Origin: an uncultured virus (IMG/VR IMGVR_UViG_3300029286_000014) | Taxonomy: Duplodnaviria; Heunggongvirae; Uroviricota; Caudoviricetes | Virus record (IMG/VR): IMGVR_UViG_3300029286_000014 | DNA length: 64,000 nt | Strand: one strand, 5' to 3' | In this document: piece after piece, positions 943 through 56,632 of the stretch | Layout: each line of letters opens with the position of its first letter | Numbering within the stretch: the first letter of the stretch is position 1 | The notes under the pieces: generated by a model | What the model was told of the DNA's origin: nothing | Databases searched by the model: none | Seen by the model: the letters and a program-made list of their open reading frames with translations, nothing else | Program-made: the position numbers and the translations under genes

Positions 943-2250
943 ATGGAAAGAAAAATTATCTGCAAATTTTGTAATAATATAATAGGAACTAGAAAAATAT
1001 ATTGTTCATCTAATGGAAAAGATACATTATCCGTATGTGAAAAATGCAAAGGATTAAGATATCTATATTCAAAGAAAAATGATACACATAACATAACTGA
1101 TGTTAAATATTGGATGAAATACACAAATAATGACATTGAAATGGCAACACAAGCATACAAAAATTGCGGATATCTTTTAAGATATACATCAAAAAATAGT
1201 TCTATTTATTTGCCTAAAATATTTTCTAAATTAAATATTGATATATCTATATTTGAAAAATTCTTAAAAAGAATTTTTAATAATGAAATAAAATTTGATT
1301 TGATATTAAAAAATATACCATCAAATTCATATAAACGATGGAACCTTGCTTTAGGATTTGATATAGAAACCTCAAAGAAAATTTCTACCTATTTTACAAC
1401 ATCTCAAGAAGGATTCAGTTTACGGGGCGATAAAAATAAATATGAAGAATGGAAAAACAACGTTAAAGAATCCTTGGAAAATAAATCATCGAAGCCAAGT
1501 TCGTTTAGTAAAGAATATTGGATTAATAAAGGATCCTTAGAAGAAGAAGCAAAAAACATTGTTAAAACAAACAATATACGAAATTTAAATTATTTTGCGG
1601 CAAAGTATGGAATTGATGAAGGAACAAAAAAATATAAGTCAATGTGTGAAAAACGTAGCAAATCTTCTTCATTAAAAGGATATATTGAAAGATTCGGTAG
1701 AGAAGAGGGGGTTAAAGAATTTAAAAGAATTAATAAGAGTAGGGCTATAACTTTAGAAAAATATCTAATTAAGTATGGTGAAGAAGGAATTAAAAAATAT
1801 GAAGAATATATAACATCAAAAATATCTTCTAATAATATTATATCTAAAATATCAAACGAATTTCTGTTTGAAGTAGAGAATAAAACTAAAATGATAATAG
1901 ACAGAGAAACACCAATCGGTAAATATATTGCAGATGGAAAAAATAAAAACATTATTTTTGAATTTTTTGGAGACTATTGGCACAAAAATCCTTTTTCTGG
2001 GTATACTGATTTTGAAAAATGGAAGGATGATTCAGCTAAAATTAAATATTTTTTAAATGTTGGTTATCGTGTGATAATAGTTTGGGAGAGAAGTTTTAAG
2101 TTTATAAGAGAAAAAACTATTGATTTAATTTATAACTTTTTGGAAACCGAAGATACTTTTTTATGTATTAATTGTACAGAAAATAAAAATATTTTAATAG
2201 AATCTGTAAAAGAAATTTGTGAAAGGAGAAAAAATGCTAGTAAAGGTTAA
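943..2250 (+). CDS. free-standing homing endonuclease, Vsr-like/PD-(D/E)xK C-terminal nuclease domain
   Basis: N-terminal CxxC..CxxC; repeated KYGxxEG-type units; C-terminal ADG..IIFEFFGDYWH..D..K...GYRVIIVWE; lies between the two split-intein halves. Confidence 0.8.
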   Translation: MERKIICKFCNNIIGTRKIYCSSNGKDTLSVCEKCKGLRYLYSKKNDTHNITDVKYWMKYTNNDIEMATQAYKNCGYLLRYTSKNSSIYLPKIFSKLNIDISIFEKFLKRIFNNEIKFDLILKNIPSNSYKRWNLALGFDIETSKKISTYFTTSQEGFSLRGDKNKYEEWKNNVKESLENKSSKPSSFSKEYWINKGSLEEEAKNIVKTNNIRNLNYFAAKYGIDEGTKKYKSMCEKRSKSSSLKGYIERFGREEGVKEFKRINKSRAITLEKYLIKYGEEGIKKYEEYITSKISSNNIISKISNEFLFEVENKTKMIIDRETPIGKYIADGKNKNIIFEFFGDYWHKNPFSGYTDFEKWKDDSAKIKYFLNVGYRVIIVWERSFKFIREKTIDLIYNFLETEDTFLCINCTENKNILIESVKEICERRKNASKG

Positions 2251-2641
2251 AATAAAAATTAAAGATTTTTATGATACTTTCTCAACAGAAAGTAGAGACA
2301 ATGAAGTAGTAAATATAAAGAAACAGTGTTTTATAAAAAATGAAATGGGTGAATTATCTGAAATAATTGGTGTTATAAGAAAATCTAATAATGATATTTA
2401 TAAATATAAATTTACGAATAATAAGCATATAACATGCTCAGATGGTCATATTCTAAAAACTGAAGATAATTATAAAAAATTAAAAGATATAACTATGAAG
2501 GATAATATTGATGTTTTCAATGATGATCCAATAAAATTAATTTCTAAAAAATTTATAAAAAATTCAGATGTTTATGATATTGCTCTTAAAGAAGATTCAT
2601 CACATGCATATTTAACACCAAATGGATTAATAAATCATAAT
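2234..2641 (+). mobile_element. split intein, C-terminal part (136 aa, mini-intein, ends His-Asn; Thr+1)
   Basis: Block B TxxxH-like, block F VYD, block G HN followed by T. Confidence 0.88.
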
Positions 2642-3472
2642 ACAACAATTGCAAGAATACTTACATCCAAAAATGGTATTCTGGCAAATCCCAACGAAAA
2701 TCTTTTATTCATAAACGGTTCATCAAAATCAACTAGAGGAATTAAATTTGTCGATGAAGTGATCGAGCCATTTTTGAAAATTCCACCAGCGGGAAAAGAC
2801 AAACAGAAGGTTGTATTAATTGATGAAGCAGATGGTTTAACAAGTGATGCAATAGATTCTTTGAGAGGAGTAATAAATAAATTTTCTTCATATGGAAGAT
2901 TTATTTTTACATGTAATTATGTTTCAAAAATCTCAGATCCTTTGATGAGTAGATTTTCAGCTGCTACGTACGAATTTAAAACAGTTCCTGTTGAAAGGGT
3001 TATTGAACATTGTAAAAAGATTTTAGTAAAAGAAGAGATTACTTTTGATGAAAAAGATTTAGCACATGTTTGCAAAACATTGTATCCAGATACAAGAAAA
3101 ATAATTGGTGTATTACAGAAGCACTCAAAAACAGGACAACTTGAAATTGATAGAAATTCAGTTCTAAATAATGAGAAGTTTATAATCTCATCAGTTGTCG
3201 ACATGATTACTTCATTGAATAATAAACAACAGAAAGCTGGTAGCATTTTAGGTGGTATTGTAAAAGCTTTAGAAGATCAAGATGTGGATTATAGAAATAT
3301 TTATTCTGAACTTTTTTTTAGAAAAGAGATTCCAGTAAATTGTAAGGTTATAATTAATCGATATGCAAATACACATAGTGATTGCTTCATTCCCCATATG
3401 CATTTTATGGGTATGTGTTTTGATATTGGAAAAACAATACAAGATTATATTAAGTTAACAGAAGGTAAATAA
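2234..3472 (+). CDS. C-intein (136 aa) fused to clamp loader (RFC/gp44-like) C-terminal part
   Basis: AAGGAG RBS and ATG 2234; ITCSDGH (block B), VYDI..NGLINHN|T splice junction; then TTIARIL, LIDEADGL (Walker B), LRGVIN, FIFTCN, PLMSRF, DTRK. Confidence 0.9.
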   Translation: MLVKVKIKIKDFYDTFSTESRDNEVVNIKKQCFIKNEMGELSEIIGVIRKSNNDIYKYKFTNNKHITCSDGHILKTEDNYKKLKDITMKDNIDVFNDDPIKLISKKFIKNSDVYDIALKEDSSHAYLTPNGLINHNTTIARILTSKNGILANPNENLLFINGSSKSTRGIKFVDEVIEPFLKIPPAGKDKQKVVLIDEADGLTSDAIDSLRGVINKFSSYGRFIFTCNYVSKISDPLMSRFSAATYEFKTVPVERVIEHCKKILVKEEITFDEKDLAHVCKTLYPDTRKIIGVLQKHSKTGQLEIDRNSVLNNEKFIISSVVDMITSLNNKQQKAGSILGGIVKALEDQDVDYRNIYSELFFRKEIPVNCKVIINRYANTHSDCFIPHMHFMGMCFDIGKTIQDYIKLTEGK

Positions 3473-4478: not shown

Positions 4479-4913
4479 ATGATTAATAAAAAAAAAGTTG
4501 AAAACGAAGCAAAGGTTGAACAGAAAAAGAAATTATTAGCATTAAAAGAAAAAGCTTTATCTGGTGAAATGTCAAAATTAGTTTTTCCAATTCCCGAAGT
4601 TGATTACTATAGTATTTTTTGTAAGGCAATAGCGGAAAATAAAATGGATAAACTTTTTAATTGTAATGTTTGTGTTTTCTATCAAGAATATGATGGAGAA
4701 GATTCGGTTATTTTTGTTTTCGGGATTCCTTCATATGATAAAGAAGCAGTAGATTCAAAAGAAAGTAAAAGTTTATCTCAAAGAGTTATGGAAATTCTGA
4801 AGTTAGCTGAAGAAGTTTTTATAACAATTGATTTTATGGAATTAAAAGATGTTAAAGAAGACAAATTTTCATATTTTACATTAATTAAAAAACTTAAAAA
4901 TAAAAAGGAGTAA
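4479..4913 (+). CDS. hypothetical protein
   Basis: 144-aa ORF with AAGGA RBS in the replication operon. Confidence 0.6.
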   Translation: MINKKKVENEAKVEQKKKLLALKEKALSGEMSKLVFPIPEVDYYSIFCKAIAENKMDKLFNCNVCVFYQEYDGEDSVIFVFGIPSYDKEAVDSKESKSLSQRVMEILKLAEEVFITIDFMELKDVKEDKFSYFTLIKKLKNKKE

Positions 4914-4916
4914 ATC

Positions 4917-5645
4917 ATGCAAATAATTTTAGATTCTGGAAAGTTTAGTGATATGATAAGGATTATGTCAATGTTCGATGGTCTTTGTAACGATGTAACA
5001 GTAAATGAAGGTATTATAAGACAAAGGTCTAATGATAAAATTTCTGTATTTGATGTTGATATGAGACCAATTCTTGAAGACATGACTTTTACACTTTCAC
5101 AATTCAAACAAAAATTAGAATTGTTGAAAACATTCATTGGTCAAGAAGTTACAATTGAAACAAATGATGAAGACTTTACGTTTGCAGATCAACATTCGAG
5201 TTTTAAAATTAAATACCCAAAATCTGATTTTGTAGACAACAAATTTATTACAGAAAAAGATTTAGAAAGTGTTGTTGATACAAGTAAAGAAAATTTTATT
5301 CTTGAAACATCAATAAGTAAAATAATTTCAGAAAGAATAAGAACTTATGCAAAAACATTTAATATGTGGGATCTTGTTCTTATATTTGAAGGGGAGACAG
5401 CAAAAATTTTGATTGAAACGGAAGCAAAGGATCAGTCTGCATTATTCTTAAATGGAATCCCCACAAATAAGAGTGTTGAATGCTACACAGATGTTTCAGT
5501 AATTCCATTTATCATTGATCACGATAGCGATATAAGTTTGAATGTTTTCGAAGGTGAAAATGAAAAAACCCTGAATCGTTTTGTAACAACATGTGCAGAT
5601 GTAGATATAAAAATATATTGCAGATCTCTTATTAAAGGAGAATAA
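4917..5645 (+). CDS. sliding clamp (PCNA/T4 gp45-like)
   Basis: 242 aa, acidic; N-terminal pattern MQIILDSGKFSDMIRIM..CNDVTVNEGIIRQRSNDKISVFDVD resembles PCNA; adjacent to clamp loader and primase. Confidence 0.7.
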   Translation: MQIILDSGKFSDMIRIMSMFDGLCNDVTVNEGIIRQRSNDKISVFDVDMRPILEDMTFTLSQFKQKLELLKTFIGQEVTIETNDEDFTFADQHSSFKIKYPKSDFVDNKFITEKDLESVVDTSKENFILETSISKIISERIRTYAKTFNMWDLVLIFEGETAKILIETEAKDQSALFLNGIPTNKSVECYTDVSVIPFIIDHDSDISLNVFEGENEKTLNRFVTTCADVDIKIYCRSLIKGE

Positions 5646-5646
5646 T

Positions 5647-5680
5647 ATGCCAAATAAAAAACATTTGCTTGAAGATTTAA
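5647..5680 (+). pseudogene. original 5' end (MPNKKHLLEDL) of the DUF3310-like gene, separated from its body by the IS insertion
   Basis: AAGGAG RBS then ATG 5647; joining 5680 to 6901 recreates an in-frame ATG and a continuous ORF. Confidence 0.75.
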
Positions 5681-6900
5681 CCTCAAAAAGAAATCCCCTG
5701 CCTTTAGGCGGGGGTCTAGCATAGGAGATATATGATTTGTTATAAATACAGACTGCATCCAAATAAACAGCAAATAGCTTTATTGTGGAAACATGCCAAT
5801 AAGTGTAACTGGCTATATAATTATTTCCTGAATCAAAGGATAGAATGCTACAAAAGCGCAGGAAGAGGTATATCTAAAAACGAACAACAGAAGGAATTGG
5901 TGAAATTCAAAGAAATAGATACAGTTGTAAAAGAAATACATTCACAAGTTTTACAACAGATTACTTTGAGGTTAGATACTACATATCAAGCTTTTTTCAA
6001 GAATTATAAAGAAGGACACGGTTTTCCGAAGTTTAGAAGTTGTAAAAAATTCTTTGGGATAAGATACCCACAATCAGGTTTTTCAATACAAGATGATGTT
6101 TTCTGTACGAAAGTTTATGGAGGTATTAAGTTTTCTAAACATCGACTTTATAACGGAAATGTCAAACAAGTTTATATTAATGAGGAAAAGGGCAAGTGGT
6201 TTATTTCTATAACTACTGATTATGAAAGAGAGAAGACAGATTCTAAAAAAAAGGAAGCAATAGATGTAGGAATAACCAATCTTTTAGCCACATCTAAAGG
6301 GTTAATAATAAAGAACAAAACCCATGCTAAATATTTTGATAAAGAAATAAATAATCTTAAATCAAGGAGGGATACACAATGTAAAAAATATTCAAGAGAA
6401 TGGAGGAATCTTTCAGAGATAATTAAAAGATTGTATGGTGTAAAAAATCGAAAAGTAAACGATTATTTACATAAGGTTAGTAAAAACCTATCCCTAAAAT
6501 ATGATACCATCTTTTGTGAAGATTTATCTTTGAAAAAAATGTCTGAATCAAATAAAAAGGGATTGAATAGAGAGTTAAGAAACTCTCAGTTAGCAAAGTT
6601 TATTTCTTATCTTGAATACAAAACCAATATAGTAAGAGTAAATCCAAGAAACACATCCAAAACCTGCAATAGTTGTGGTTCTATACACGATATGCCTTTG
6701 TGGAATAGGATTTATAATTGTGAATGTGGTTATGTAGAAGATAGAGATGTAAACGCTGCTAAAAACATTTTTTGCTTGGGACAAGCCATAATCTCAGGAT
6801 TATGTACTGAATCAGCAACGATTCAGGAAGCCTTACCCTATAAGGAGATGCTTTATGAATAATGTTATGAAGCCCTTCCCTTTAGGGGAGGGTAGTTCAC
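5681..6900 (+). mobile_element. IS200/IS605-family TnpB-only (IS1341-like) element, inserted 3' of TTTAA
   Basis: Left hairpin CCCCTGCC-TTTA-GGCGGGGG (5695-5714); right hairpin CCCTTCCC-TTTA-GGGGAGGG (6873-6892) ending ...TAGTTCAC; no target duplication; no tnpA. Confidence 0.85.
5732..6862 (+). CDS. tnpB: RNA-guided endonuclease TnpB
   Basis: YKYRLHP HTH, GFPKFRS, RuvC I IDVG, RuvC II CEDL, TSKTCNSCG..CECG Zn ribbon, RuvC III DRDVNAAKNI. Confidence 0.95.
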   Translation: MICYKYRLHPNKQQIALLWKHANKCNWLYNYFLNQRIECYKSAGRGISKNEQQKELVKFKEIDTVVKEIHSQVLQQITLRLDTTYQAFFKNYKEGHGFPKFRSCKKFFGIRYPQSGFSIQDDVFCTKVYGGIKFSKHRLYNGNVKQVYINEEKGKWFISITTDYEREKTDSKKKEAIDVGITNLLATSKGLIIKNKTHAKYFDKEINNLKSRRDTQCKKYSREWRNLSEIIKRLYGVKNRKVNDYLHKVSKNLSLKYDTIFCEDLSLKKMSESNKKGLNRELRNSQLAKFISYLEYKTNIVRVNPRNTSKTCNSCGSIHDMPLWNRIYNCECGYVEDRDVNAAKNIFCLGQAIISGLCTESATIQEALPYKEMLYE

Positions 6901-7199
6901 TGCACTCAAAAAATAATAAATCAAGAGTAGAAGAATGGAAAGAGTTTTCAAAAAAAGTTGAAGACTATATAACAAGTGTTACAGTAGACAAATATGGAAC
7001 TTCTGGGAGTGATCTTGTTTCTATAACAGATAGTCCTAGAATATGGATTTGGAATATTTTGAGATATGCGTTAAGAGTTTGGAGAAGAAATGGAAAATTG
7101 AATGATATATTTAAAATAGTTCATTATGCCCAGATTGCATATACTCAAGCAAATGGAGACCTTTCAATATTAGGTATAACAAATGAAAAATCAACTTGA
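6855..7199 (+). CDS. DUF3310-like phage protein whose present N-terminus (MNNVMKPFPLGEGSS) is supplied by the IS right end
   Basis: WNILRYALR..GK..DIFKIVHYA pattern; AAGGAG 6842-6847 and ATG 6855 lie inside the IS. Confidence 0.6.
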   Translation: MNNVMKPFPLGEGSSLHSKNNKSRVEEWKEFSKKVEDYITSVTVDKYGTSGSDLVSITDSPRIWIWNILRYALRVWRRNGKLNDIFKIVHYAQIAYTQANGDLSILGITNEKST

Positions 7200-7210
7200 G
7201 GGAGGAACAA

Positions 7211-8347
7211 GTGACACCAGAATCTATTTTAAGTTATTACCCAAGTTATGCAATCTTAGATGAAATTTTAACAACAGGACAATATGTTCAGGTCAATATT
7301 TTCATTGACCTGAACAATACCCTTCAAACCTTATATTTACCTCATACAATTCTAGCCTTAACAGAAACAACAAAAAAAAGTAAATATATAGATACGTCAA
7401 TTTTTAATTCTGTTTTATCTTTTTTGGCATTTCATAAGAAATATTTTCAAAAAAGAGGAAATATAAATGTTAATTTTTATTTCTTTTTTGAAACAGGTGG
7501 ATCTTTTTATCATACAAATATTTCTAAGAAATATAAAATGTCTAGAAAAACTGACAATTTATATGGATTGGATAAGACAACAAGAGATTTATTTTTTTCT
7601 ATAAAGCAGAAGAATTTTTTATTGATTGAAAAAGTTTTAAATACAGCTCCTGGATGTAATTTATTTAAACTACAAAATTTTGAAGCAGATTTTGTTCCAT
7701 ATTATTTAGTAAAAAATAAGATGATAAAAAACGGAAATAATGTTGTTAATATTCTTTACTCAAACGATCACGATATGCTTCAATGTTTGAATTTGGATGA
7801 GAACTTTTTTATTTACTCAAAAACCAAGACAGGCAAAAAAGTAATAAGAAAGGGTAATGCATTTAGAGAATATTTTAAATGTGAAAAAACTTTTCCAGAT
7901 GAATATTTCACACTTGCATTATCAATTATTGGGGATGCCGGTGATGATGTAGATGGTGTTGAAGGAATTGGACAGAAGAGAATAGATCTTTGTTTAAGTA
8001 AAATTGTTAAAATGGTAGGAGGAATGGATAATCTAAGGAATAACGTAATCAACAATAAACCAATTTTTGTCACAACTGATAGAATGGGTAACAAATATAT
8101 AGAGAAGGTTGTTGAGTTTGAAAATAGATTTAAGACGATAAGCAATAATATGAAGTTGGTTGATTTTGACATAATTTCAAGATATTTTATTGATCCAGGC
8201 TCAACTGAAGTTGTTATTAAAAGAAATCTTCTACATGAGATATTAAATAAAAATAAGATTACACCAATTGAAGTGTTAAAACCAGCTTTAGAAATGAATG
8301 GTGTTTCCCTCAATGATGAACTGGAGGTAATATATAATCTTATTTAA
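7211..8347 (+). CDS. 5'-3' exonuclease / T4 RNase H-like (FEN/PIN fold)
   Basis: FIDLNN, FEADF, SNDHDMLQ, IIGDAGDDVDGVEGIG (H3TH); GGAGG RBS before GTG 7211. Confidence 0.85.
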   Translation: MTPESILSYYPSYAILDEILTTGQYVQVNIFIDLNNTLQTLYLPHTILALTETTKKSKYIDTSIFNSVLSFLAFHKKYFQKRGNINVNFYFFFETGGSFYHTNISKKYKMSRKTDNLYGLDKTTRDLFFSIKQKNFLLIEKVLNTAPGCNLFKLQNFEADFVPYYLVKNKMIKNGNNVVNILYSNDHDMLQCLNLDENFFIYSKTKTGKKVIRKGNAFREYFKCEKTFPDEYFTLALSIIGDAGDDVDGVEGIGQKRIDLCLSKIVKMVGGMDNLRNNVINNKPIFVTTDRMGNKYIEKVVEFENRFKTISNNMKLVDFDIISRYFIDPGSTEVVIKRNLLHEILNKNKITPIEVLKPALEMNGVSLNDELEVIYNLI

Positions 8348-13207: not shown

Positions 13208-15958
13208 ATGCCGACAGGTAAAAAAATTGTTTTGTCAGATAACGCTACAGAAGTTGCAACAGCAAGATATTTTAACAATGGTGAAGATTGGGAATCATGT
13301 ACAGCTAGAGTTGCAAAAGCTGTTTCAGATGTTGAATTTAATAAAAAAGATTTTTCTGATAAGTTTCATGAAGTTATATATAATATGGATTTTATTCCTG
13401 GAGGAAGAATTTTAAGAAATGCTGGAAGAGTGAAGGGATCAATGTTAAATTGCTATGTGGTTCCTATTGGTGATTCCATTGAAGAAATTGGTCAATTTAT
13501 AAAAGACTCATTGACACTTTGGTCTGAAGGTGGTGGGGTCGGATGTAATTTTTCAAATTTGAGACCTGCTGGTGATCCGATTCTTGGTAAGGGTGGGCAT
13601 TCATCGGGAATGGTTTCATTCATAAAAGCTGCGGACGCAGTATCTAAAACTATTGAAAGTGGTGGTCAACGGAGAGCAGCTGCATTAGCATGTGTAGAAG
13701 TTTCACACCCAGAAGTTGTAGAGTTTATCAATTCAAAACTTGTTGATAATGAACTATCTCATTTCAACATATCAGTTCTTGTAAATGAAGAATTTCTTAA
13801 AGCAGTTGAAGCTAATGCAAATTGGACATTTAAATTCAAACAAAGAGAATATCAAACGGTTCCAGCTAGAGAAATATGGAATCTAATTGTTTCAAATATG
13901 ATTAACAAGGCAGAACCAGGATTATTGAATGGAACGAACTTATATAAAAATAATTCATATTATTTTGATCCAGTTGTATCCACGAATCCTTGTTGGACGG
14001 GCGATACTCTAGTTGCTGTTGCGGATGGAAGAGGTGAAGTTTCATTTGAGCAGCTAGCTATGGAATCAAAAGATGTTCCTGTGTATTGTTTTAATCCAAA
14101 AACAAAAGAAACTGAAATAAGAATGATGAGAAATCCAAGAAAAACATCTGAAAAAGAAAAAATTCTTGAAATTATTTTAGATGATGGTTCCTCATTTAAA
14201 TGTACTGAAAACCATAAACTTGTTGATAAAAATGGAATTGAAGTTTTTACTAAAGATTTGAAACCTGGTTCAAGATTACACCATATGATAAAGACATATG
14301 GAAATAATATTAAAGAACAACAAGAACCAATTGCAATTTGGAATGGATATGTAAATAAAAAGGGATATTGTTTTGAACATAGAGTTCAAGCTGAATTTTT
14401 ATTAGGAAGAAAATTAAAAGATGGTGAATCTGTACATCATAGAGATGAAAATAATCAGAACAATACTTTTGAAAATATTTGTGTAATGAATCATGGTGAA
14501 CACACAAAGATGCATCAAAGTGGTGATAAAAATGTAATGAGAAGCAAGTGGTGGAATAATCAATCTGAAAAAATAAAAAATGAATATAAAAGAAAAATGT
14601 CAATTTCTACATCGGGAACAAAAAATGGAAATTGGTCTGGATATACATTAGATGATCTAAAACCTATTGCTTTAACATATATTATTTCTTTGGGGAGAAA
14701 ACCATTAGTTAAAGAATGGGTGAAATATTGTAAAGATAACAAGCTTCCACATTCAATATCTGCAACATCTGATTTTATAAATGAAGTATATGAAAGTATT
14801 AATTTAAATTATAAGGTGGTTTCAATTAGAGAATGTGATTATGAAGCTGTTTATAATGGAACTGTTGATGATTTTCATAATTATTATGTTTTTACTAATT
14901 TTAGCAAAAATAAAAGTGGAAAAAATAGAAAAAATTATATATTAAGTAAAAATTGTGGCGAAGCAGTTCTTGAAAATTATGGTTCATGTTGTTTGGGATC
15001 GTTGGTATTACCGAATTTCATTACAGGAACGACAAATACAAATTGGCAAAAATTAGAAAGAACAATTAAACTTGCAGTAAGATTTCTTGATAATGTCATT
15101 GATGTAAATAAATATACACTAAATGAAATTGATATTAAAGGGCATAATGGAAGAAGAATAGGTCTTGGAATAATGGGGCTCGCAGATTATTTATTTGCAA
15201 AAGAATTGAGATATGGATCTAAAGAAGCTTTAGCAGAAATTGAACGTTTGATGAAATTTATAAGAGATATTGCATATCAAACATCAGTTGAATTGGCTGT
15301 AGAAAAGGGAGCATTCCCAAGATTTGACCCAGTATATTATGGAAATTCATCATTTGTAAGAAAACTTCCTGCTCCATTAAGAATGGAAATAAAATCAAAA
15401 GGTATAAGAAATGTCACATTGTTATCAATTGCCCCAACAGGAACAATTTCTCTACTTAGAGAATGTTCGAGTGGCATTGAACCTTTGATGTTTAAATCAT
15501 ATAAGAGAAGAGATAGAGTTGGTGAAAGAGTATACATTCATCCAAGATATAAAAATTTACTATTAACAGGAAATGCTGTTCCTAGTTGGTTTGTTGATAT
15601 GACAGACCTAAGTCCAAAAGATCATTTTGAAACACAAGCAATGATTCAAAAATATGTTGATGGGGCTGTAAGTAAAACAATTAATCTTCCTGCTGGAACA
15701 ACTGCTGATGATCTTGATAAACTTCTTCTTGAATATACTCATGACCTAAAAGGTGTAACTGTTTATGTTGATGGTTCAAGAGGTGGGCAAGTTTATGAAA
15801 ATTTAACAGAAGAAGAAGCTATTGAATATATTGCAGGCGAAAGTGTAAATGATGAACTGAGCATAGATGATGTGGAATGCGCGTGTGCTAAACCAGTTGA
15901 AGATGAAGAAGGAAAAGAAATAGGTTGCGAAATTCCCACAAAAATTAAAGAGGAGTAA
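13208..15958 (+). CDS. nrdJ: class II (adenosylcobalamin-dependent) ribonucleotide reductase, intein-containing
   Basis: PGGRIL, NCYV, GGGVG, RRAA, TNP|CGE split by intein, RRIGLGIMG, IAPTGTIS, VSKTINLP; no small subunit nearby. Confidence 0.88.
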   Translation: MPTGKKIVLSDNATEVATARYFNNGEDWESCTARVAKAVSDVEFNKKDFSDKFHEVIYNMDFIPGGRILRNAGRVKGSMLNCYVVPIGDSIEEIGQFIKDSLTLWSEGGGVGCNFSNLRPAGDPILGKGGHSSGMVSFIKAADAVSKTIESGGQRRAAALACVEVSHPEVVEFINSKLVDNELSHFNISVLVNEEFLKAVEANANWTFKFKQREYQTVPAREIWNLIVSNMINKAEPGLLNGTNLYKNNSYYFDPVVSTNPCWTGDTLVAVADGRGEVSFEQLAMESKDVPVYCFNPKTKETEIRMMRNPRKTSEKEKILEIILDDGSSFKCTENHKLVDKNGIEVFTKDLKPGSRLHHMIKTYGNNIKEQQEPIAIWNGYVNKKGYCFEHRVQAEFLLGRKLKDGESVHHRDENNQNNTFENICVMNHGEHTKMHQSGDKNVMRSKWWNNQSEKIKNEYKRKMSISTSGTKNGNWSGYTLDDLKPIALTYIISLGRKPLVKEWVKYCKDNKLPHSISATSDFINEVYESINLNYKVVSIRECDYEAVYNGTVDDFHNYYVFTNFSKNKSGKNRKNYILSKNCGEAVLENYGSCCLGSLVLPNFITGTTNTNWQKLERTIKLAVRFLDNVIDVNKYTLNEIDIKGHNGRRIGLGIMGLADYLFAKELRYGSKEALAEIERLMKFIRDIAYQTSVELAVEKGAFPRFDPVYYGNSSFVRKLPAPLRMEIKSKGIRNVTLLSIAPTGTISLLRECSSGIEPLMFKSYKRRDRVGERVYIHPRYKNLLLTGNAVPSWFVDMTDLSPKDHFETQAMIQKYVDGAVSKTINLPAGTTADDLDKLLLEYTHDLKGVTVYVDGSRGGQVYENLTEEEAIEYIAGESVNDELSIDDVECACAKPVEDEEGKEIGCEIPTKIKEE
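13991..14953 (+). mobile_element. intein (321 aa) with HNH endonuclease in nrdJ
   Basis: CWTGDTLV N-terminus, CTENH block B, EHR..VHHRDENNQNN..EN HNH domain, VYNGTVDDFHNY block F, ends SKN|C. Confidence 0.92.
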
Positions 15959-29546: not shown

Positions 29547-30434
29547 ATGAATTATCAATTAGTTATTGATTCTATTTTTGATAGAGCTAAAAATAGAATA
29601 CTTCCACCAGAAGAAAAAACACATAAACATCATATTATAATGCGCTCACTAGGTGGTGGCAATTCAGGAGAAAATCTAGTTCGTTTAACTATAAGAGAAC
29701 ATGGATTAGTTCATCTTCTTCTAACAAAAATAAATCCTTGTTATAAAACTTATTTAGCAGTCTTTTATATGTTCAATAATGGATGTATTAAAAATACTAG
29801 AGAATATGAAAAAATTATGATAAAAGTTAGTGAATATCAAAAAGAAAAATGCCCAATGAAAGGAAAGAAGCACTCTGAGGAAACAAAAGAAAAAATAAGA
29901 AATAAAGCTATTGGAAGAAAACATTCAAAAGAAGCAAAAGAAAAAATGAGAGGAAGAACTGCTTGGAATAAAAATATACCAAGAACAGAAATAGAAAAAG
30001 AGCATATGAGAAATGCATTGGTTGGAAAACATTCGGGTGAAAAGAATGGTAGGTATGGAAAAGAAGTATCTGAAGCTACTCGAAATAAAATTAGTATAGG
30101 AAATAAAGGAAAAGTTTTAACAGAAGAAACAAAACAAAAAATGAGTGATAAACATAAAGGTAAAGTTCCTTGGAATTCAGGTCTTACAAAAGAAACGAGC
30201 CTCTTATTAAGAAAAATTAGTGAAAATAAAAAAGGAACAGTTGGCCCAATGACAGAAAAAAAACATACAGAAGAAAGTAAGAATAAAATGAGTGAGACAA
30301 GAAGAAAAAAAGGATTAGGTGCTAAAAAAGGAAGAAAACTTTCTGAGGAGACTAAAATTAAAATATCGGTATCTCTTAAAAAAACCTATAGAAATAAAGA
30401 AATTTTATCTAACACAAGAGAGGAAAGAAAGTAA
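29547..30434 (+). CDS. HNH homing endonuclease with NUMOD3 repeats
   Basis: HKHHIIMRSLGGGNSGENLVRLTIREHGLVH; repeated HSEETKEKI units. Confidence 0.9.
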   Translation: MNYQLVIDSIFDRAKNRILPPEEKTHKHHIIMRSLGGGNSGENLVRLTIREHGLVHLLLTKINPCYKTYLAVFYMFNNGCIKNTREYEKIMIKVSEYQKEKCPMKGKKHSEETKEKIRNKAIGRKHSKEAKEKMRGRTAWNKNIPRTEIEKEHMRNALVGKHSGEKNGRYGKEVSEATRNKISIGNKGKVLTEETKQKMSDKHKGKVPWNSGLTKETSLLLRKISENKKGTVGPMTEKKHTEESKNKMSETRRKKGLGAKKGRKLSEETKIKISVSLKKTYRNKEILSNTREERK

Positions 30435-33400
30435 TGCTCCTTAAACTTCTCGATGTATCACACTTCTGTAGTTTATATAAACAAGTGACCTCAACAATGA
30501 TACTAACCAAAGGTGAAAAATTTCATGATGAAGGATTATTCTCTGAAGTTATTTTTGGAAAGGAAAAAACTAAGGAAAGAAAAACAACTTTTGGATACAT
30601 AAATCTTAATGTAAAAGTTATTCATCCAGCTGCATTATCTCTTCTTCTAAAGGTTAGTAGAAATATTAAAAAATTTTTATCAACCGAGATATCATTTTCA
30701 TTAGATTCAGCTGGAAGATTAATTGAAGACCCAAATGGTGTTACTGGAATTAATGCTTTCATAGACTTATTTCCAAAAATAAACTTTAAAGCATCTGAGG
30801 TTGGTACAAAAGTTATTGAACTTTTGAAAAAAGCATATAAAGATGAGGTTTTGTTTATTGATAAAATTCCAGTTATCCCTCCGGCATTTAGAGAAATGAC
30901 AAGAGATCCAAAAACTGGTGAAATCAGAGTAGAGGAAATAAATAATTATTATACTCAAATTTTAAAAAGATCATTAGGTATAAAAGCAATTGCTACAGCT
31001 AAAGGACCATTAAAGGATCTTTTAACATATGGAATTCAAAATTCTGTTATGGATTTGGATGGGTTTATAAGAACGAAATTATCAAAAAAGTTTGGTCTTG
31101 TCAGAGAACAACTTATGGGGAAAAGAGTAGATTTTTCAGCAAGAGCAGTTATAATGAATGGACCAACATTAGAAGTGAATGAAATAGGAATTCCTTTCAC
31201 AATTGCTGTAGGACTTTTTGAACCATTCATCATTCACATTCTTTTATATACAGATAAATTTGATAAAGCTACTTTGGAAACAGAAATATTAAGTTTTATC
31301 GATCAGCCCTTATCGGTTGATTCTATAAAAAAAGTTCTAAATTCTATAAAATCAAAAGATGTTGCCCCTGCTGAATTATATAAAATTATTTTTGAAGCAA
31401 CTAAAATGGCAATGGAAGGAAGACTAGTTTTAGCGAAGAGAGACCCAGTACTAATACCAGAATCCGTAAGAGCATTCAAACCAATTTTAATCAATGGTAG
31501 TATTGTTCGAGTCAATAACCTTCAAACCGGTGGATTCAATGCTGATTTTGATGGAGATCAGATGGCAATATTTCATCCTTTATCAAGTAAAGCACAAGAA
31601 GATTGCAAGAAGCTATTGAGAGACGAAACTGGAACCAATATGAATTCTATATCATATGAACTCTCAAAGGAATCTACTTTAGGGACTTATCTTCTTACAA
31701 AAGATTATAAAAAAACAACTTCTACAAAAATTATTAACAAAGAAGATCTTAAAAAGATTTCAGATCCTGCTCAAATAGTTAAATTTGGAAATAGAACAAC
31801 AACATTTGGAAAGGCAGTTTTTAATAGCTTACTTCCTGAAAATTATGGATTCATTAATATTCCAGTAACCAAAAAGGTTGTAAATAATATAATCTCAAAT
31901 ATTTTTAAAACAAGAGGATCCGATATTGCAAGAAAATTTGCCTTTGATGTTCAAACAATTGGGTATGCATATGCAACATATGTAGGTTCATCAATAACAA
32001 TTGATATGATTGATATACCACAATCAATAATGAAATTAAAAGAAAAACTTGATAAAGTAGATCCAACTACTGCTGCTGATATAATTAAACATATGAAGAA
32101 CTTAATGATTGAACATCTGAAAGATACAGGATTGTATGATTTATGTGAATCTGGAGCATCAAAAGGATGGGACCAACCAACACAAATATTGATAGCAAAA
32201 GGTGTTATTGCTGATGTTGAAGGAAATCTTCTAAAACCAATTAAAGGATCTTTTTCAGAAGGACTCACACCAAAAGAATATTTTGCGGCATCTCTTGGAG
32301 CTAGAAAAGGAATTGTTGATAGGGTTATTAACACAGCAGATACTGGATATACATCAAGACAACTCGCATATCTGTTAAATGGTGTTGAATTAGATTGGTT
32401 AAAAAAGGATTGTGAAACTACTAGAACAATTCAAATAAAATTAGTGGATGATTTAATTAAAAAGTTAGAAGGAAGATACGTTGTTGAAAATAGAAAAGTT
32501 GTACCCTTCGATAAAACAAAATATAAATCTGGTGATGTAATTAATTTAAGAACGCCTATATATTGTACAAGTAAGAAGATTTGTCATACTTGTTATGGCG
32601 AGTTATTAAAAAGGCATAGAACACCTTATGTTGGTCTAGTAGCTGCTCAAATTATAGGAGAAAGAGGAACACAATTAATTATGCGGGCATTTCATACTGG
32701 AGGAGCAGTTAAAATTGTTACCAGAGATATATTAAAAGAATTGTTCGACAATGACCCAAATTCAAATAAAGACCATATTCATCAAACCTTTAAACAAGAA
32801 GGAAGCATGATAACAACACTTAAAGGAGGAACACTAACTTTAAGTTTTGAACAATATACACTGAATGATGATCTAATTGTAAATGAGGAAGAAGATAATA
32901 TTTGGGTTAAAAGTTTACTAGGTGTTTATGAAACGACAGATGGAATAAAAATAAATGTTATTCTAGATTGTGAAGTTAACACTCTAGTTCCTAGAGAATT
33001 TATTTTTGAAAAGAAAAATAAAATTGTTGTTCAATACGAAGAAGGTGAAGAAATTTTTGAAATTCCAGTTGAAAAACAAGAAGTAAAAGAAATAGTTTTA
33101 TATATGAGAAGATTAATTGGTGGTGGAGAGATTTTTAAAGATACAACACATCTCCTTATGAAACTATATAGATTGTATGCAGATTTATCAGATATGGATT
33201 TAGTTCACATGGAAATTGTTGTTTCACAATGTTTAAGAGATAAAGAAAGACCAATACTTCCTGCAAGATTAGGGAAAGATCCAGATAATCCAGTTATGTT
33301 CAACATAAAAAAAACAGTTTTTAATTCAGGATTTTTACAGGGGCTTGCATTCGAAAATGTTGGTGAGGCAATAAGTTCTGGTCTGACAAGTAAATATGAA

Positions 33401-33466
33401 CTAGAACCATCGGTCTTAGAGAAAATACTTACTGGAACTCTTGTTGAAGATGAGGAAAAAAAGTAA
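30434..33466 (+). CDS. rpoC: RNA polymerase beta' subunit, copy 1 (virion-type, no N-terminal Zn finger)
   Basis: GLFSEVIFG, IPVIPPAFR, LMGKRVDFSARAVI, NADFDGDQM, SGASKG, TADTGYTSRQL, GTQLIMRAFHTGG. Confidence 0.95.
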   Translation: MLLKLLDVSHFCSLYKQVTSTMILTKGEKFHDEGLFSEVIFGKEKTKERKTTFGYINLNVKVIHPAALSLLLKVSRNIKKFLSTEISFSLDSAGRLIEDPNGVTGINAFIDLFPKINFKASEVGTKVIELLKKAYKDEVLFIDKIPVIPPAFREMTRDPKTGEIRVEEINNYYTQILKRSLGIKAIATAKGPLKDLLTYGIQNSVMDLDGFIRTKLSKKFGLVREQLMGKRVDFSARAVIMNGPTLEVNEIGIPFTIAVGLFEPFIIHILLYTDKFDKATLETEILSFIDQPLSVDSIKKVLNSIKSKDVAPAELYKIIFEATKMAMEGRLVLAKRDPVLIPESVRAFKPILINGSIVRVNNLQTGGFNADFDGDQMAIFHPLSSKAQEDCKKLLRDETGTNMNSISYELSKESTLGTYLLTKDYKKTTSTKIINKEDLKKISDPAQIVKFGNRTTTFGKAVFNSLLPENYGFINIPVTKKVVNNIISNIFKTRGSDIARKFAFDVQTIGYAYATYVGSSITIDMIDIPQSIMKLKEKLDKVDPTTAADIIKHMKNLMIEHLKDTGLYDLCESGASKGWDQPTQILIAKGVIADVEGNLLKPIKGSFSEGLTPKEYFAASLGARKGIVDRVINTADTGYTSRQLAYLLNGVELDWLKKDCETTRTIQIKLVDDLIKKLEGRYVVENRKVVPFDKTKYKSGDVINLRTPIYCTSKKICHTCYGELLKRHRTPYVGLVAAQIIGERGTQLIMRAFHTGGAVKIVTRDILKELFDNDPNSNKDHIHQTFKQEGSMITTLKGGTLTLSFEQYTLNDDLIVNEEEDNIWVKSLLGVYETTDGIKINVILDCEVNTLVPREFIFEKKNKIVVQYEEGEEIFEIPVEKQEVKEIVLYMRRLIGGGEIFKDTTHLLMKLYRLYADLSDMDLVHMEIVVSQCLRDKERPILPARLGKDPDNPVMFNIKKTVFNSGFLQGLAFENVGEAISSGLTSKYELEPSVLEKILTGTLVEDEEKK

Positions 33467-36400
33467 ATGATAGTAAAATTAGAAAATTTTAAACCTTATA
33501 CACAGACTGCGGATGGCATTCGACTTTTGAGGCGTGACCGCCAGTATATGATAACTTATTTTCCTGAAAATTCTAATCTATTTGATGACTACTTGCATTT
33601 TGGTTTAAGAGCACAAGAGTTAAGATATGCAATTGTTCCACTTACAAAAATTCCAAGAACAGGGTTGCTACCAGCAACTAAAGGATTATATAAAAAGATT
33701 AGACTAAATGCTTATCAATCAAATATCAAACCACCAGCAAAACAAAATATTATATATGATTGTTCGATTTACTCAACTGCTGTTGAGAAATTTTATAAAT
33801 CACTACAATTTAGACAGAGAGCTGGTGTATTGATTAAAGGAAATGCATATAGATCTATTGATTTATTTCCAAGTTTTACAAAGATTTTTATGTATGGTGT
33901 TGATTTAGATAAACCATTTAGTAAAAATATTGTTAATAGAAAAATATTTTTAATTATAAGAGATATTAAAGCAGGTGTTTTTCCATTTGATTATTTCGTT
34001 TTATCAATACTTCAGGGTGGCAAATGTAGACATAGATTATTAATGGCAGATGGGGTTTATAACTTTAATCGTTTATATCTCTTTTTAAGAAATGTGATGC
34101 CACACATGACTCATAAAGATATTGAGGATATGCATAAAGATGTTGATGAACAATTAGACAATGAAGAGATAGAAAAAGATATAGAATCTCACGATATTGC
34201 AACAGTTGTTATTAAAAATGCACCTGTTGAAGTTGTTCCAGAAGAAAAAAAGAATGAGATTCATACTGCTGTTAAACAATATTTGAAAAAATCAGATGAT
34301 GTCAGACAAGATTTAAAAATAAAATCAGATATGGGTATGTCTAAACCTGAAGCTTCAAGAGCAGTTATAAAATCTGTTATATATTCAGCAACAAAAAATT
34401 TATCTCATGCTAATAAAATTGTAGATAAACTAGATGACAAAAAAATTGAAAAAGTCTCAGCAGCTGTTAAGAAAGCATATACAGATCAGTTAGTTACAAA
34501 AACACCATCTAAAAATACTAGTACAGATCATATTGTAATTGCAGCCGATGTTCCATCTCTAGTAGATAATAAAAATCCATCTCACTTATTAGAAAAAAGA
34601 GCTATTGACTTTCATACAAATTTAAAAAATGATATTCATGAATCGTTTAAAATTTTTGAAAATCAAGAAGTTCCCTTGAAAATAAAATCTTTTGAAATTG
34701 TTGAATCCCCACAGAGAAAAGGAGAATTGTCTCAATCTGATGTAAATACTGTTGTGGTCACACTTAAAAAAAATGATGGATCTGAACAAGAAGTTCTAAT
34801 TGATATACCGAGAATAAATTTTAAAACAGGAACCTTCAGAATTTATGGAGAAACAAAATGTCTTATTAATCAGATTGTTTTGTGCCCAATAACATTTCCA
34901 AAAAGATATGATTCACTATTTCATTCATCATATTCAAAATTTCATATATATAGTAAAATAACAAAAACAAGAAAATATCTTCAAATATATATGGGATCCT
35001 TTAAAAGTCTTCCATTATTGATTGTTCTTGCGTATGCATTTGGTTGGGATAGAGTAATGGAAAAGTATGGAATGAAATATACACTTGTTTCTGAGGCTCC
35101 CGGAAAAGCTGAAACAAGACCTTATATTCGTATTGATACAAACCAGTATGTGATTTTTGACAATGTGAATAACGATTTAAAGGTTCAACTTATAGAAGCT
35201 GTTATTGTTGAAAATATTTATAAATATAAGCCAAAAGCAGTATTTGGAACAAAAGATTATTTTGCTGATCTACTTCAGGAAATAACAGGATCCATTAGTT
35301 CAACCTATTTGATTTCTGATAATATAAAATACTTGGTTGACCCTGCATCAAAACAGGTTCTTATAAATCAAGGACTTCCTTTTGAACTTGAAGAAATAAT
35401 GTATTATATGACTTATCATGTTGTTAGTGGAAAAGTTATAGAGAGAAATGATTTATCAAATCAAAGAATTCGTGGGTCTGAAGTTATAAGCATGTTGATA
35501 AGAGACCAATTGAAATCTGCATACACAACTTATAGAATGAAAGTTATGTCTGGGGATAAAAGTGCAAAATTCGACATAAATAGAACACAATTACTAAGCG
35601 AATTTTTGAAAACTGAAATTGTTACTAATATGGAGTATGCAAATCCAATTGAAGAAATGGCTACAATGACCAGAATCTCACCAGTTGGAAAACATATTGG
35701 TGGTGTTGCAACACCAGCAGCATTAACAGGAAAAGCCAGAAATGTTCATGACACATATTTTGGAAATATAGATCCTGTCGATACTCCTGAAGGTGAAAAT
35801 ATAGGTGTAACACAACAACTTGCAATGGGTGCTGAAATCACCAATGCTAGAGGATTATTTGGAAAGAAAGATATAGATGATAAAGAAGGTTCAGGAATAC
35901 TATCAACCTCATCTGCACTTATTCCTTTTGTTGGAAGCAATGATGGTGGTAGGATAATAATGGCAGATAGCCAAATTAAACAGATGCTTCCACTTAAGAA
36001 TCCAGAACCACCAATTGTAATGACTGGGTATGAATCAATTCTTACAACCTCATTGTCTGAAAATTTTGTTAAAAAGGCACCATATGATTGTATGATTGTT
36101 GAAGTAACTGAGGATTATATAAAAATAAAAAATAGAAGTGGAAAAAGTGATGCAATAGATATATCGCCAATCCATCTAAAATCTGGATTTGGAAGAGACA
36201 CTCTCAGTGTATTTGTTCCTCTAGTTAAAAAAGGATTATATGTTAAACAAGGGACATTGTTGGCAGAAGGAAGTTGTATAAAAGATGGATCAATTTCATT
36301 AGGAAAAACACTGTTAACTGCATATATGCCATATAAAGGGTATAACTTTGAAGATGGCATTGTTATAAGTAACAAGTTAGCACAGAGTGAAAAATTGACG

Positions 36401-37648
36401 TCGCTACATGGGGTAATCGAAGAAATTGACGTATCTGACAAGGATAGGGTTCTTTACATTGCAAAAATTGGTGAGTACATTGAAGCTGGAAATCCACTCA
36501 TTAGAAAAACGATAGGTGAGCTTGAGGAACTTTTGGGATATAGTGAAGATGATGATAGTGTAGTCGTTTATGGCCAAGAAATGATTAAAAAAAGTCCTGG
36601 CGGGACAATTGTTGATATTGAAGTATTTTCAAATATTCCAATTGATAGATATCCATTATTAAAAGAATTATCTGTAAAAACTAGATCTAGATATGGAATG
36701 GCTGCAAATGAAAAATTTAGTGATAGAAGAAAGACTTTAAAAGGAATTACTATAAAATTCAAAATACAACAAGAATTAAAAATAGGATTGGGTGACAAAT
36801 TAACAGGAAGATATGGAAATAAGGGGGTCGTCTGTTTAATTGAAGATGACGATAAAATGCCAAAAACACCTTGGAACGAAAATCTTGATATAATATTGAA
36901 TCCTTTGGGTGTTATTGGTAGAATGAATATGGGTCAAATTTTTGAACTTTATTGTGGATTGATTGCTAAAGCAATGGCTATTAGAATTGGCGCAGCTAGA
37001 AATAAATCTCAAATTATGGCAGTATTTAGAACAGTTTTACCACTTCTCGATAATACAAAGAATTTTGAATACAGTAAAAAAACTGTAGCTACATTAGCAG
37101 GATTATCGGAACAAAACTTTTTAGCAATGGTTAACTCAATTAAGAAAAATGGTTTTGTACCAATAATAGTTCCACCATTCAAATCTCCAACGCATAAACA
37201 AATTCATATGGCAATGAAAGCGTTAGGATTGTCTGATGGTTATAATTTATTTTTACCAGATCTTGGAATAAATACAAAAAGTAAAGTTCCAGTTGGATAT
37301 TCATATATTACTAAACTTGAGCATATGGGTGATTTAAAAGCTCATGTTAGATCAACAGGCCCAACAACTGCAACAAGACAACCTACACAAGGAAAAAGCA
37401 GAGAAGGTGGTCAGAGACTCGGGGAACAAGATTCGTACGCAATAATGGGCTACAACGCACCACATCTATTATCAGAGTTAATGGGACCTTTATCTGACGA
37501 TCAAAGGAGCAGAGACGAAATGATTTCAGAAATAATAACATCTGGAGCCGCAACTTTTAGAGTGTCAACAGAATCAATGGCTAGAGATTTTATGGGAGCC
37601 TATCTCATAGGACTTCTTCTTGATTCTAGAGAGAGTAAACTGAAATGA
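33467..37648 (+). CDS. rpoB: RNA polymerase beta subunit, copy 1 (long N-terminal extension)
   Basis: DPVDTPEGENIG, LIPF..ND, YNFEDGIV, GDKLTGRYGNKG, NPLGVIGRMN, KLEHM, GGQRLGEQD. Confidence 0.95.
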   Translation: MIVKLENFKPYTQTADGIRLLRRDRQYMITYFPENSNLFDDYLHFGLRAQELRYAIVPLTKIPRTGLLPATKGLYKKIRLNAYQSNIKPPAKQNIIYDCSIYSTAVEKFYKSLQFRQRAGVLIKGNAYRSIDLFPSFTKIFMYGVDLDKPFSKNIVNRKIFLIIRDIKAGVFPFDYFVLSILQGGKCRHRLLMADGVYNFNRLYLFLRNVMPHMTHKDIEDMHKDVDEQLDNEEIEKDIESHDIATVVIKNAPVEVVPEEKKNEIHTAVKQYLKKSDDVRQDLKIKSDMGMSKPEASRAVIKSVIYSATKNLSHANKIVDKLDDKKIEKVSAAVKKAYTDQLVTKTPSKNTSTDHIVIAADVPSLVDNKNPSHLLEKRAIDFHTNLKNDIHESFKIFENQEVPLKIKSFEIVESPQRKGELSQSDVNTVVVTLKKNDGSEQEVLIDIPRINFKTGTFRIYGETKCLINQIVLCPITFPKRYDSLFHSSYSKFHIYSKITKTRKYLQIYMGSFKSLPLLIVLAYAFGWDRVMEKYGMKYTLVSEAPGKAETRPYIRIDTNQYVIFDNVNNDLKVQLIEAVIVENIYKYKPKAVFGTKDYFADLLQEITGSISSTYLISDNIKYLVDPASKQVLINQGLPFELEEIMYYMTYHVVSGKVIERNDLSNQRIRGSEVISMLIRDQLKSAYTTYRMKVMSGDKSAKFDINRTQLLSEFLKTEIVTNMEYANPIEEMATMTRISPVGKHIGGVATPAALTGKARNVHDTYFGNIDPVDTPEGENIGVTQQLAMGAEITNARGLFGKKDIDDKEGSGILSTSSALIPFVGSNDGGRIIMADSQIKQMLPLKNPEPPIVMTGYESILTTSLSENFVKKAPYDCMIVEVTEDYIKIKNRSGKSDAIDISPIHLKSGFGRDTLSVFVPLVKKGLYVKQGTLLAEGSCIKDGSISLGKTLLTAYMPYKGYNFEDGIVISNKLAQSEKLTSLHGVIEEIDVSDKDRVLYIAKIGEYIEAGNPLIRKTIGELEELLGYSEDDDSVVVYGQEMIKKSPGGTIVDIEVFSNIPIDRYPLLKELSVKTRSRYGMAANEKFSDRRKTLKGITIKFKIQQELKIGLGDKLTGRYGNKGVVCLIEDDDKMPKTPWNENLDIILNPLGVIGRMNMGQIFELYCGLIAKAMAIRIGAARNKSQIMAVFRTVLPLLDNTKNFEYSKKTVATLAGLSEQNFLAMVNSIKKNGFVPIIVPPFKSPTHKQIHMAMKALGLSDGYNLFLPDLGINTKSKVPVGYSYITKLEHMGDLKAHVRSTGPTTATRQPTQGKSREGGQRLGEQDSYAIMGYNAPHLLSELMGPLSDDQRSRDEMISEIITSGAATFRVSTESMARDFMGAYLIGLLLDSRESKLK

Positions 37649-56624: not shown

Positions 56625-56632
56625 GAGGTCTT

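Follow-up and report, generated by a model that had tools for sequence, protein, structure and literature searches.

Several described IS200/IS605-type elements carry a TnpB nuclease that takes its guide RNA from the right end of the element. In Sulfolobus islandicus, TTTAA is reported both as the site where the IS605-type element encoding TnpB7 (SisTnpB) is predicted to insert and as the functional transposon-associated motif (TAM) of the nuclease, NTTAA working as well, and the guide is said there to start immediately after a conserved UUCAC of the RNA (PMC11043419). For ISDra2 TnpB of Deinococcus radiodurans (PDB 8bf8, 8exa, 8h1j), the guide RNA likewise derives from the right end of the element (PMC8612924, PMC10097598), residues D191 and E278 are described as required for cleavage (PMC8612924), and the catalytic triad is named in PMC10097598. 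Retention of such elements is attributed to cutting by the nuclease of the donor joint, that is, the TAM together with the right flank (PMC8612924; bioRxiv 10.1101/2023.03.14.532601). A 2026 review goes on to name co-infecting phages as a theoretical target of TnpA-independent "transposon non-restorative homing", citing a plasmid experiment (PMC13565253). Here we describe a natural phage locus of this kind, located in a 64,000-nt stretch of an uncultured virus of the class Caudoviricetes (IMG/VR record IMGVR_UViG_3300029286_000014; hereafter the window). Positions 5681-6900 of the window are occupied by a TnpB-only IS200/IS605-type element, exactly where a preliminary description of the sequence had placed it. 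In the reading that we prefer, and to which we assign a probability of roughly three in four, this copy is a non-autonomous member of the family, inserted 3' of TTTAA and ending in ...TTCAC, which would be retained or spread through cutting of the empty allele by TnpB.

The element can be removed in silico to recover the gene it interrupts. That gene begins with the ATG at 5647, 6 nt past AAAGGAG (5634-5640) and immediately after the stop of the upstream gene, and its frame runs for 11 codons up to ...GAA GAT TTA A at 5680. The sequence 3' of 6900 reads TG CAC TCA AAA AAT AAT AAA TCA AGA GTA GAA GAA TGG, and removal of 5681-6900 yields a single in-frame gene of 109 codons (MPNKKHLLEDL-MHSKNNKSRVEEW...), with the joined flanks forming an open frame of 122 codons (23 located 5' of the junction and 99 located 3' of it). 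The right-flank frame contains neither an ATG nor a GTG; it therefore needs a start further upstream and represents the 3' part of the interrupted gene. Insertion took place in codon 12 of what resembles a DUF3310 gene, an assignment based on a Pfam match below the cut-off (E 0.0011) and on 29 of 30 Atlas hits. No direct repeat is present in the flanks, TTTAA and TGCAC not being repeats of one another. The preliminary description had already proposed that deletion of the element restores an in-frame gene behind a good ribosome-binding site and that no target duplication had occurred; the sequence and the 122-codon frame bear out the former, and 30-odd related copies, along with the flanks, the latter.

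Independent, if indirect, support for this junction comes from a sister phage. Among 5.8 billion proteins, a single cluster matched the interrupted protein, and it has two members, P0001 and P0002. The second of these, encoded on a 73-kb sister contig, reads MNNVMKPFPLGEGSS-QERMKL-MHSKNNK (...GEGSS-QERMKL-MHSKNNK), meaning that the same right end is followed by 17 different nt and then by L-M-H-S-K uninterrupted. This contiguous L-M-H-S-K corresponds to the native ...TTA ATG CAC... predicted across 5680|6901. Deposited phages gave no match to the interrupted protein by tblastn, nor to the DNA of 5000-7600. Searches of IMG/VR with the interrupted protein, the upstream protein and TnpB, each taken singly, gave no confirmed hit, and the exact 31-mer of the right flank had 0 matches in the same database. 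The coordinates of all features are collected in the table.

Table. Features of the TnpB element and its flanks (positions are those of the window).
Feature	Position	Strand	Basis
Left flank: ribosome-binding site AAAGGAG, ATG, 11 codons and 1 base, target/TAM pentamer TTTAA at 5676-5680	5634..5680	+	
25-codon leader frame (MPNKKHLLEDLTSKRNPLPLGGGLA*) from the ATG of the host gene into the left end	5647..5724	+	
Whole element, 1,220 bp, TnpB-only IS200/IS605 type	5681..6900	+	Boundaries from related copies
Left end: 14-nt spacer CCTCAAAAAGAAAT; hairpin CCCCTGCC (5695-5702), loop TTTA, GGCGGGGG (5707-5714)	5681..5731	+	
tnpB, 376 aa, RuvC D178/E263/D339, zinc ribbon CxxC...CxC	5732..6862	+	Pfam and ISDra2 alignment
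Predicted omegaRNA scaffold	6708..6900	+	Alignment covariation, fold z-score
Long-range pairing of the scaffold	6708-6711 with 6895-6898	+	
Scaffold helix	6774-6786	+	
Scaffold helix	6787-6804	+	
Scaffold helix	6807-6826	+	
Right-end hairpin native to the lineage, degenerate here (GAAGCC TTACCC TATA AGGAG), 2 of 5 pairs broken	6827..6847	+	Alignment A3, columns 223-236
Read-out frame: AAGGAG 6842-6847, ATG 6855, overlapping the tnpB end, open through the right end into the interrupted gene	6842..7199	+	
Terminal right end: GAAG, hairpin CCCTTCCC-TTTA-GGGGAGGG (6873-6892), then TAGTTCAC; element ends at 6900	6869..6900	+	
Right flank, predicted guide part of the omegaRNA (TGCACTCAAAAAATAA...); also remainder of the DUF3310-like gene, to 7199	6901..6920	+	IS200/IS605 paradigm as published
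First TTTAA downstream of the element; a contig of run X4 joins 6900 to 7115 behind it	7110..7114	+	

Both ends of the element were delimited by comparison with related copies. The terminal 23-mer (6878-6900) was found in 22 loci, 2 from IMG/VR and 20 from JGI metagenomes. One of them, L015, is the window itself (100% over 6,023 nt), L005, L013 and L012 fall at the same sites as L002, L003 and L006, and L016 and L017 constitute one site, leaving 17 other distinct sites. Every one of these diverges from the first base after ...GTAGTTCAC (GTTCAC). The full terminal 32 nt are identical by blastn in most of the 22 loci, with 5 rows at 93.9-96.9%. A further set, recovered with the TnpB protein alignment and separately from the 23-mer, comprises 15 loci (14 distinct sites) of the lineage to which the window TnpB belongs, whose proteins are 45-65% identical and whose elements end in AGTTCAC followed by unrelated flanks. 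Because both sets diverge right after ...GTTCAC, the element ends at 6900.

Among copies of the family sharing the right end, the left end could be placed in 12 distinct ones, 10 of which have TTTAA immediately before CCT...; in the TnpB lineage it could be placed in 10 distinct copies, 8 of them with TTTAA. Taken together, TTTAA immediately precedes the left end in 18 of the 22. In the first family the other two pentamers are TTTTA (L011) and CTTAA (L010, in which the first bases of the element are also changed); in the TnpB lineage they are ATTAA (L028) and TTTTA (L032). The left-end hairpin is identical in L035, and related hairpins lie 13-19 nt from TTTAA in other copies. Each end of the window element carries a subterminal hairpin of 8 bp with a TTTA loop (5695-5714 and 6873-6892), and there are no terminal inverted repeats. 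Upstream of the pentamer, flanks are unrelated between copies with the exception of one pair, the window and L001. These two otherwise unrelated phage contigs share CTTGAAGATTTAA beside the element (L001 1497-1520, window 5660-5680), the top of 45 pairs. A longer left end or a homologous target was considered for this likeness and set aside, as the pair score of 13, against 11 for three further pairs and a median of 7, was not counted significant.

Comparison alone cannot assign TTTAA to one side of the junction, yet the pentamer most plausibly belongs to the flank. We place it there on account of the host reading frame, the sister-phage protein and the published mechanism of the family. Its inclusion in the element was rejected on the same grounds: the host frame needs TTTAA, P0002 has the following ATG-CAC in its native context, and the mechanism described for IS200/IS605 elements argues otherwise. 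The preliminary description had further predicted TTTAA as the TAM and a guide beginning directly after the right end. The former agrees with 18 of 22 copies and with the TAM published for Sulfolobus TnpB7, the latter with the comparative data and the same nuclease, so that both predictions appear sound. SisTnpB resembles the window element in TTTAA, in a scaffold end of UUCAC and in a guide that starts at the next base, and its reported tolerance of NTTAA fits the ATTAA and CTTAA variants noted above. In contrast, SisTnpB is archaeal, thermophilic and chromosomal, whereas the window element is a phage resident without tnpA and with a composite right end; the likeness is one of reported motifs.

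The encoded protein is a TnpB with an intact frame. Three Pfam families were matched above their cut-offs (PF12323 HTH_OrfB_IS605, 1.5e-10; PF01385 OrfB_IS605, 4.1e-13; PF07282 Cas12f1-like_TNB, 8.6e-18). Among relatives of solved structure, ISDra2 TnpB scored best (E 1.2e-28, alignment over residues 4-347), and D178, E263 and D339 align with its D191, E278 and D361. The columns of the catalytic triad are invariant in 12 aligned relatives, and the alignment to ISDra2 TnpB agrees with the earlier statement that the RuvC D/E/D is intact. Proteins P0003 and P0005 are 93% (over the full length) and 77% identical to the window TnpB, respectively. A search of genome contigs with the TnpB alignment produced 6 pattern matches, 0 of which were confirmed. 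Besides the aligned triad, the window element would share with ISDra2 a guide RNA taken from the right end; it differs in its TAM (TTTAA instead of the published TTGAT) and in that ISDra2 carries tnpA. A fusion with a group I intron (IStron) was ruled out, as merely 51 nt separate the left end from tnpB.

The gene tnpB occurs once in the 64-kb window. As the preliminary description had it, tnpA is absent: the TnpA of relative L011, used as a tblastn query, gave a best E of 1.7 against the window, and no Y1 (HUH) transposase was found there. Lacking tnpA, the element is non-autonomous. Related copies vary in this respect. L011, an element of 1,813 bp with the same ends, encodes both a Y1_Tnp (E 7.6e-40) and TnpB, and in 17 lineage loci tnpA upstream of tnpB was intact in 6, a remnant in 2 and missing from 9. 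TnpB-only copies of the lineage measure 1,222-1,275 bp compared with 1,220 bp in the window. The family sharing the right end also includes miniature copies of 239-244 bp that keep the 3' RNA-coding part (L003, L008, L017 and L020), a 48-bp solo hybrid of left and right end (L019) and an element of ~844 bp in which an HNH endonuclease open reading frame (ORF) is fused to a TnpB C-terminal remnant (L012). The tnpA-bearing relatives with matching ends indicate that the same environments hold a transposase capable of acting on these ends, and the window copy would depend on such a TnpA for transposition.

The last ~190 nt of the element carry a structure that is conserved and covaries, as expected of an omegaRNA. 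The final 200 nt fold better than their shuffles (z -4.28). A first 3'-end alignment, made with the family sharing the right end, contained only an invariant terminal hairpin and no covariation, and TnpB's own lineage was therefore used for the structure. The alignment of the window with 14 relatives of that lineage gave 5 helices, in which 98.0% of cells were paired compared with 81.7% in shuffles, and 16 of 24 pairs showed compensatory change. None of 500 shuffles matched any of the five measures, and sliding the partners lowered pairing to 27-44%; these counts were taken on the alignment from which the structure was predicted, which somewhat favours it. Helices 2-4 are kept in the window, and the right-end hairpin (helix 5) covaries across the lineage. 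The predicted long-range pairing recalls a pseudoknot reported for the ISDra2 omegaRNA, in which positions -5 to -3 pair with -103 to -105 (PMC10097598); the ISDra2 scaffold is given as 116 nt long compared with ~190 nt in the window. No Rfam family matched below E 0.17, the best match being at chance level, and a promoter and terminator scan did no better than on shuffles (15 promoter-like sites against 12.8 expected; 0 terminators).

The right end of the window copy departs from that of its lineage. TnpB of the relatives ends in ...TIQEALAFRQG, with the stop inside the terminal GGGTAGTTCAC, and the C-terminus of the window TnpB differs. Here the end is composite: the degenerate lineage hairpin is followed by 21 nt and then by an intact right end that is identical in most copies of a different, co-occurring IS605 family (L001-L022). 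Compared with 14 of 14 relatives, the window has 42 additional nt between the conserved helices and the terminal hairpin. P0003 and P0005 share the unusual C-terminus, which shows that the composite arrangement is not unique to this copy. The 42-nt segment contains the tnpB stop, an AAGGAG (6842-6847) and the ATG at 6855, from which a read-out frame is predicted to extend into the interrupted gene. Its 114-aa product would combine 16 residues dictated by the element, the last of them from a codon that straddles the junction, with native residues 13-109, and public gene callers have recorded it as P0001. On the opposite side, the stop of the leader frame (TAG, 5722-5724) overlaps an AGGAG (5723-5727) ahead of the tnpB ATG, and the leader probably couples translation of tnpB to the start of the host gene. 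The element thus appears to be wired into the phage operon at both sides, by selection or by accident.

Population data were obtained by placing the contigs of four sequencing runs, labelled lake-water metagenomes, on 4900-7700; stretches without cover in runs X4-X6 are uninformative. Run X4, which stems from another lake sample, contains a filled left junction (record 8, 5416-5813) along with a 151-nt contig (record 11, depth 2.2) that joins 6845-6900 to 7115-7209 with no mismatches and no shared letters. The 214 nt skipped by this contig start exactly at the predicted element end and terminate in the TTTAA at 7110-7114, a pentamer that takes up only 0.4% of positions on this strand. The joint is most simply read as a deletion of everything between the right end and the next target motif, or else as recombination with a copy that had inserted at TTTAA 7110-7114. 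On either reading, it implies that this right end and this pentamer took part in a transposase-type event. As the deletion puts the host gene out of frame, the interrupted gene seems to be dispensable. Separately, a contig of run X6 (a 2025 sample) matches the window from 5641, covering the ribosome-binding site, the 11 host codons, the element's left end and the beginning of tnpB, with unrelated sequence upstream; the same filled junction seems to occur in a different genomic context.

Several observations weigh against retention and spread by TnpB. The empty allele, for which the preliminary description had proposed a search, was sought in proteins, contigs and IMG/VR, and none was found; every contig covering the site is filled, and the 5.8 billion proteins held no other cluster of the interrupted gene. 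The X4 evidence is thin, consisting of one short contig (151 nt, depth 2.2). On the sister contig, the TnpB call (P0004) begins only at residue 57 and so leaves out the first 56; this copy may be damaged, and copies may be decaying. The 42-nt segment and the degenerate native hairpin might impair the omegaRNA, and the conserved 3' structure could serve the transposase as single-stranded DNA rather than act as RNA. Finally, 4 of 22 copies deviate from TTTAA (TTTTA twice, CTTAA and ATTAA).

Part of this evidence would also suit a fixed, inert relic, that is, a single insertion that no longer moves or guides cleavage and whose host gene is either dispensable or re-expressed from the read-out start. 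The filled contigs, the truncated call in the sister phage, the composite right end with its degenerate hairpin and 42 extra nt, the lack of tnpA in 64 kb and the X4 variant that drops 214 nt of a seemingly dispensable host gene and shifts its frame are all compatible with such a state, whereas tnpB keeps an unbroken frame of 376 aa, the full D/E/D triad and its zinc ribbon, P0003 is 93% identical at full length and helices 2-4 are all kept. The X4 joint, lying exactly at the right end behind TTTAA, speaks against a relic as well and points to recent transposase-type action on this very copy. On balance, we consider an inert relic unlikely and favour an element that is still retained or spread by its nuclease.

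For such an active element, the following course of events can be proposed. The element would have inserted by single-strand "peel and paste" 3' of TTTAA, at codon 12 of the 109-codon gene and without target duplication. TnpB would be made from phage transcripts, its translation probably being coupled to that of the 25-codon leader at the host ATG, and would bind an omegaRNA made from ~6708-6900 plus ~16-20 nt of the right flank (TGCACTCAAAAAATAA...). The complex would then cleave any phage genome copy where TTTAA directly abuts the right flank, that is, an empty or excised allele. Repair of the break from an element-bearing genome would either keep the element after excision or transfer a copy to an element-free phage sharing the cell. 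For movement to new sites, a Y1 transposase would be required in trans, such as that encoded by relatives with matching ends. We infer RNA production, cleavage and homing into element-free sister phages from the arrangement of the locus.

This scheme has close parallels in known systems. In Geobacillus IS200/IS605 elements, the donor joint, with the TAM abutting the right flank, is likewise described as the nuclease target, and one TnpA is reported to serve diverse elements sharing their ends (bioRxiv 10.1101/2023.03.14.532601). These elements and the systems published for non-restorative homing are chromosomal or plasmid-borne and experimentally tested, whereas the phage element is described here from its sequence. 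The free-standing and intron-borne homing endonucleases of T-even phages, as reviewed, are similar in being selfish nuclease genes that sit in phage replication regions and pass from one co-infecting phage to another through break repair, and different in that the target is recognized by protein, with no guide RNA and no transposon ends (PMC13565253). A limited literature search returned no phage example of transposon-nuclease homing.

The genome around the element resembles that of a jumbo-type phage, with ~30% G+C and all ORFs of at least 130 aa on one strand. Its gene content includes 2 sets of split multisubunit RNA polymerase genes, ribonucleotide reductase, UvsX, topoisomerase II, SbcCD and a clamp loader. 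In such a genome one may picture a "polite", phage-adapted transposon that relies on TnpA-independent, RNA-guided homing between co-infecting jumbo phages, borrows the host start for tnpB, restarts the gene at low cost with its own ribosome-binding site and ATG in the 42-nt segment, and is open to a foreign TnpA by virtue of the terminal 32 nt that it has in common with a co-occurring IS605 family. We regard this extended picture as doubtful. Far less probable still is a TnpB that serves the phage, be it as a weapon against competing phages or host DNA or as a regulator. TnpB homologues are indeed common in phages, being present in 410 deposited phage records, and relatives of the lineage are encoded in 393 of 556 candidate IMG/VR stretches, the best in contigs up to 458 kb. 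The element also lies in sense with the surrounding genes, inside the replication-gene block. However, the guide is set by the flank and matches the phage's own gene only (its 16-mer is unique within the window), the ends, the motif and the tnpA-bearing relatives are typical of an ordinary mobile element, and the catalytic residues are intact, unlike those of the nuclease-dead TnpB-derived regulators that have been reported.

Some further features of this genome were recorded. The two sets of large ORFs at 30434-37648 and 53898-59701 show matches to beta-type families of phage multisubunit RNA polymerases, as is the case in phiKZ-like jumbo phages. Should this phage build a nucleus-like compartment, a phage-encoded TnpB would need access into it. 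The large-subunit ORF of ribonucleotide reductase (13208-15958) contains an HNH endonuclease segment at residues 368-460 according to PHROG hits; an intein, or an endonuclease inserted in frame, may account for it. At the N-terminus of the clamp-loader ORF (2219-3472) lie ~130 additional residues that weakly match Intein_splicing (E 0.0086), and this ORF overlaps the end of the preceding 435-aa ORF (region 943-3472); a further selfish insert or a split gene may explain the arrangement.

Homing against element-free sister phages, which the preliminary description had suggested, is a reasonable inference of an already published kind. The composite right end and the read-out start are the sole unusual traits, both of them small and testable oddities. 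As the element otherwise conforms to what is textbook knowledge for its family, the finding confirms expectations and is not a surprise. What it provides is a cleanly delimited natural phage TnpB locus with predicted TAM, guide and RNA scaffold, usable to test homing between co-infecting phages.

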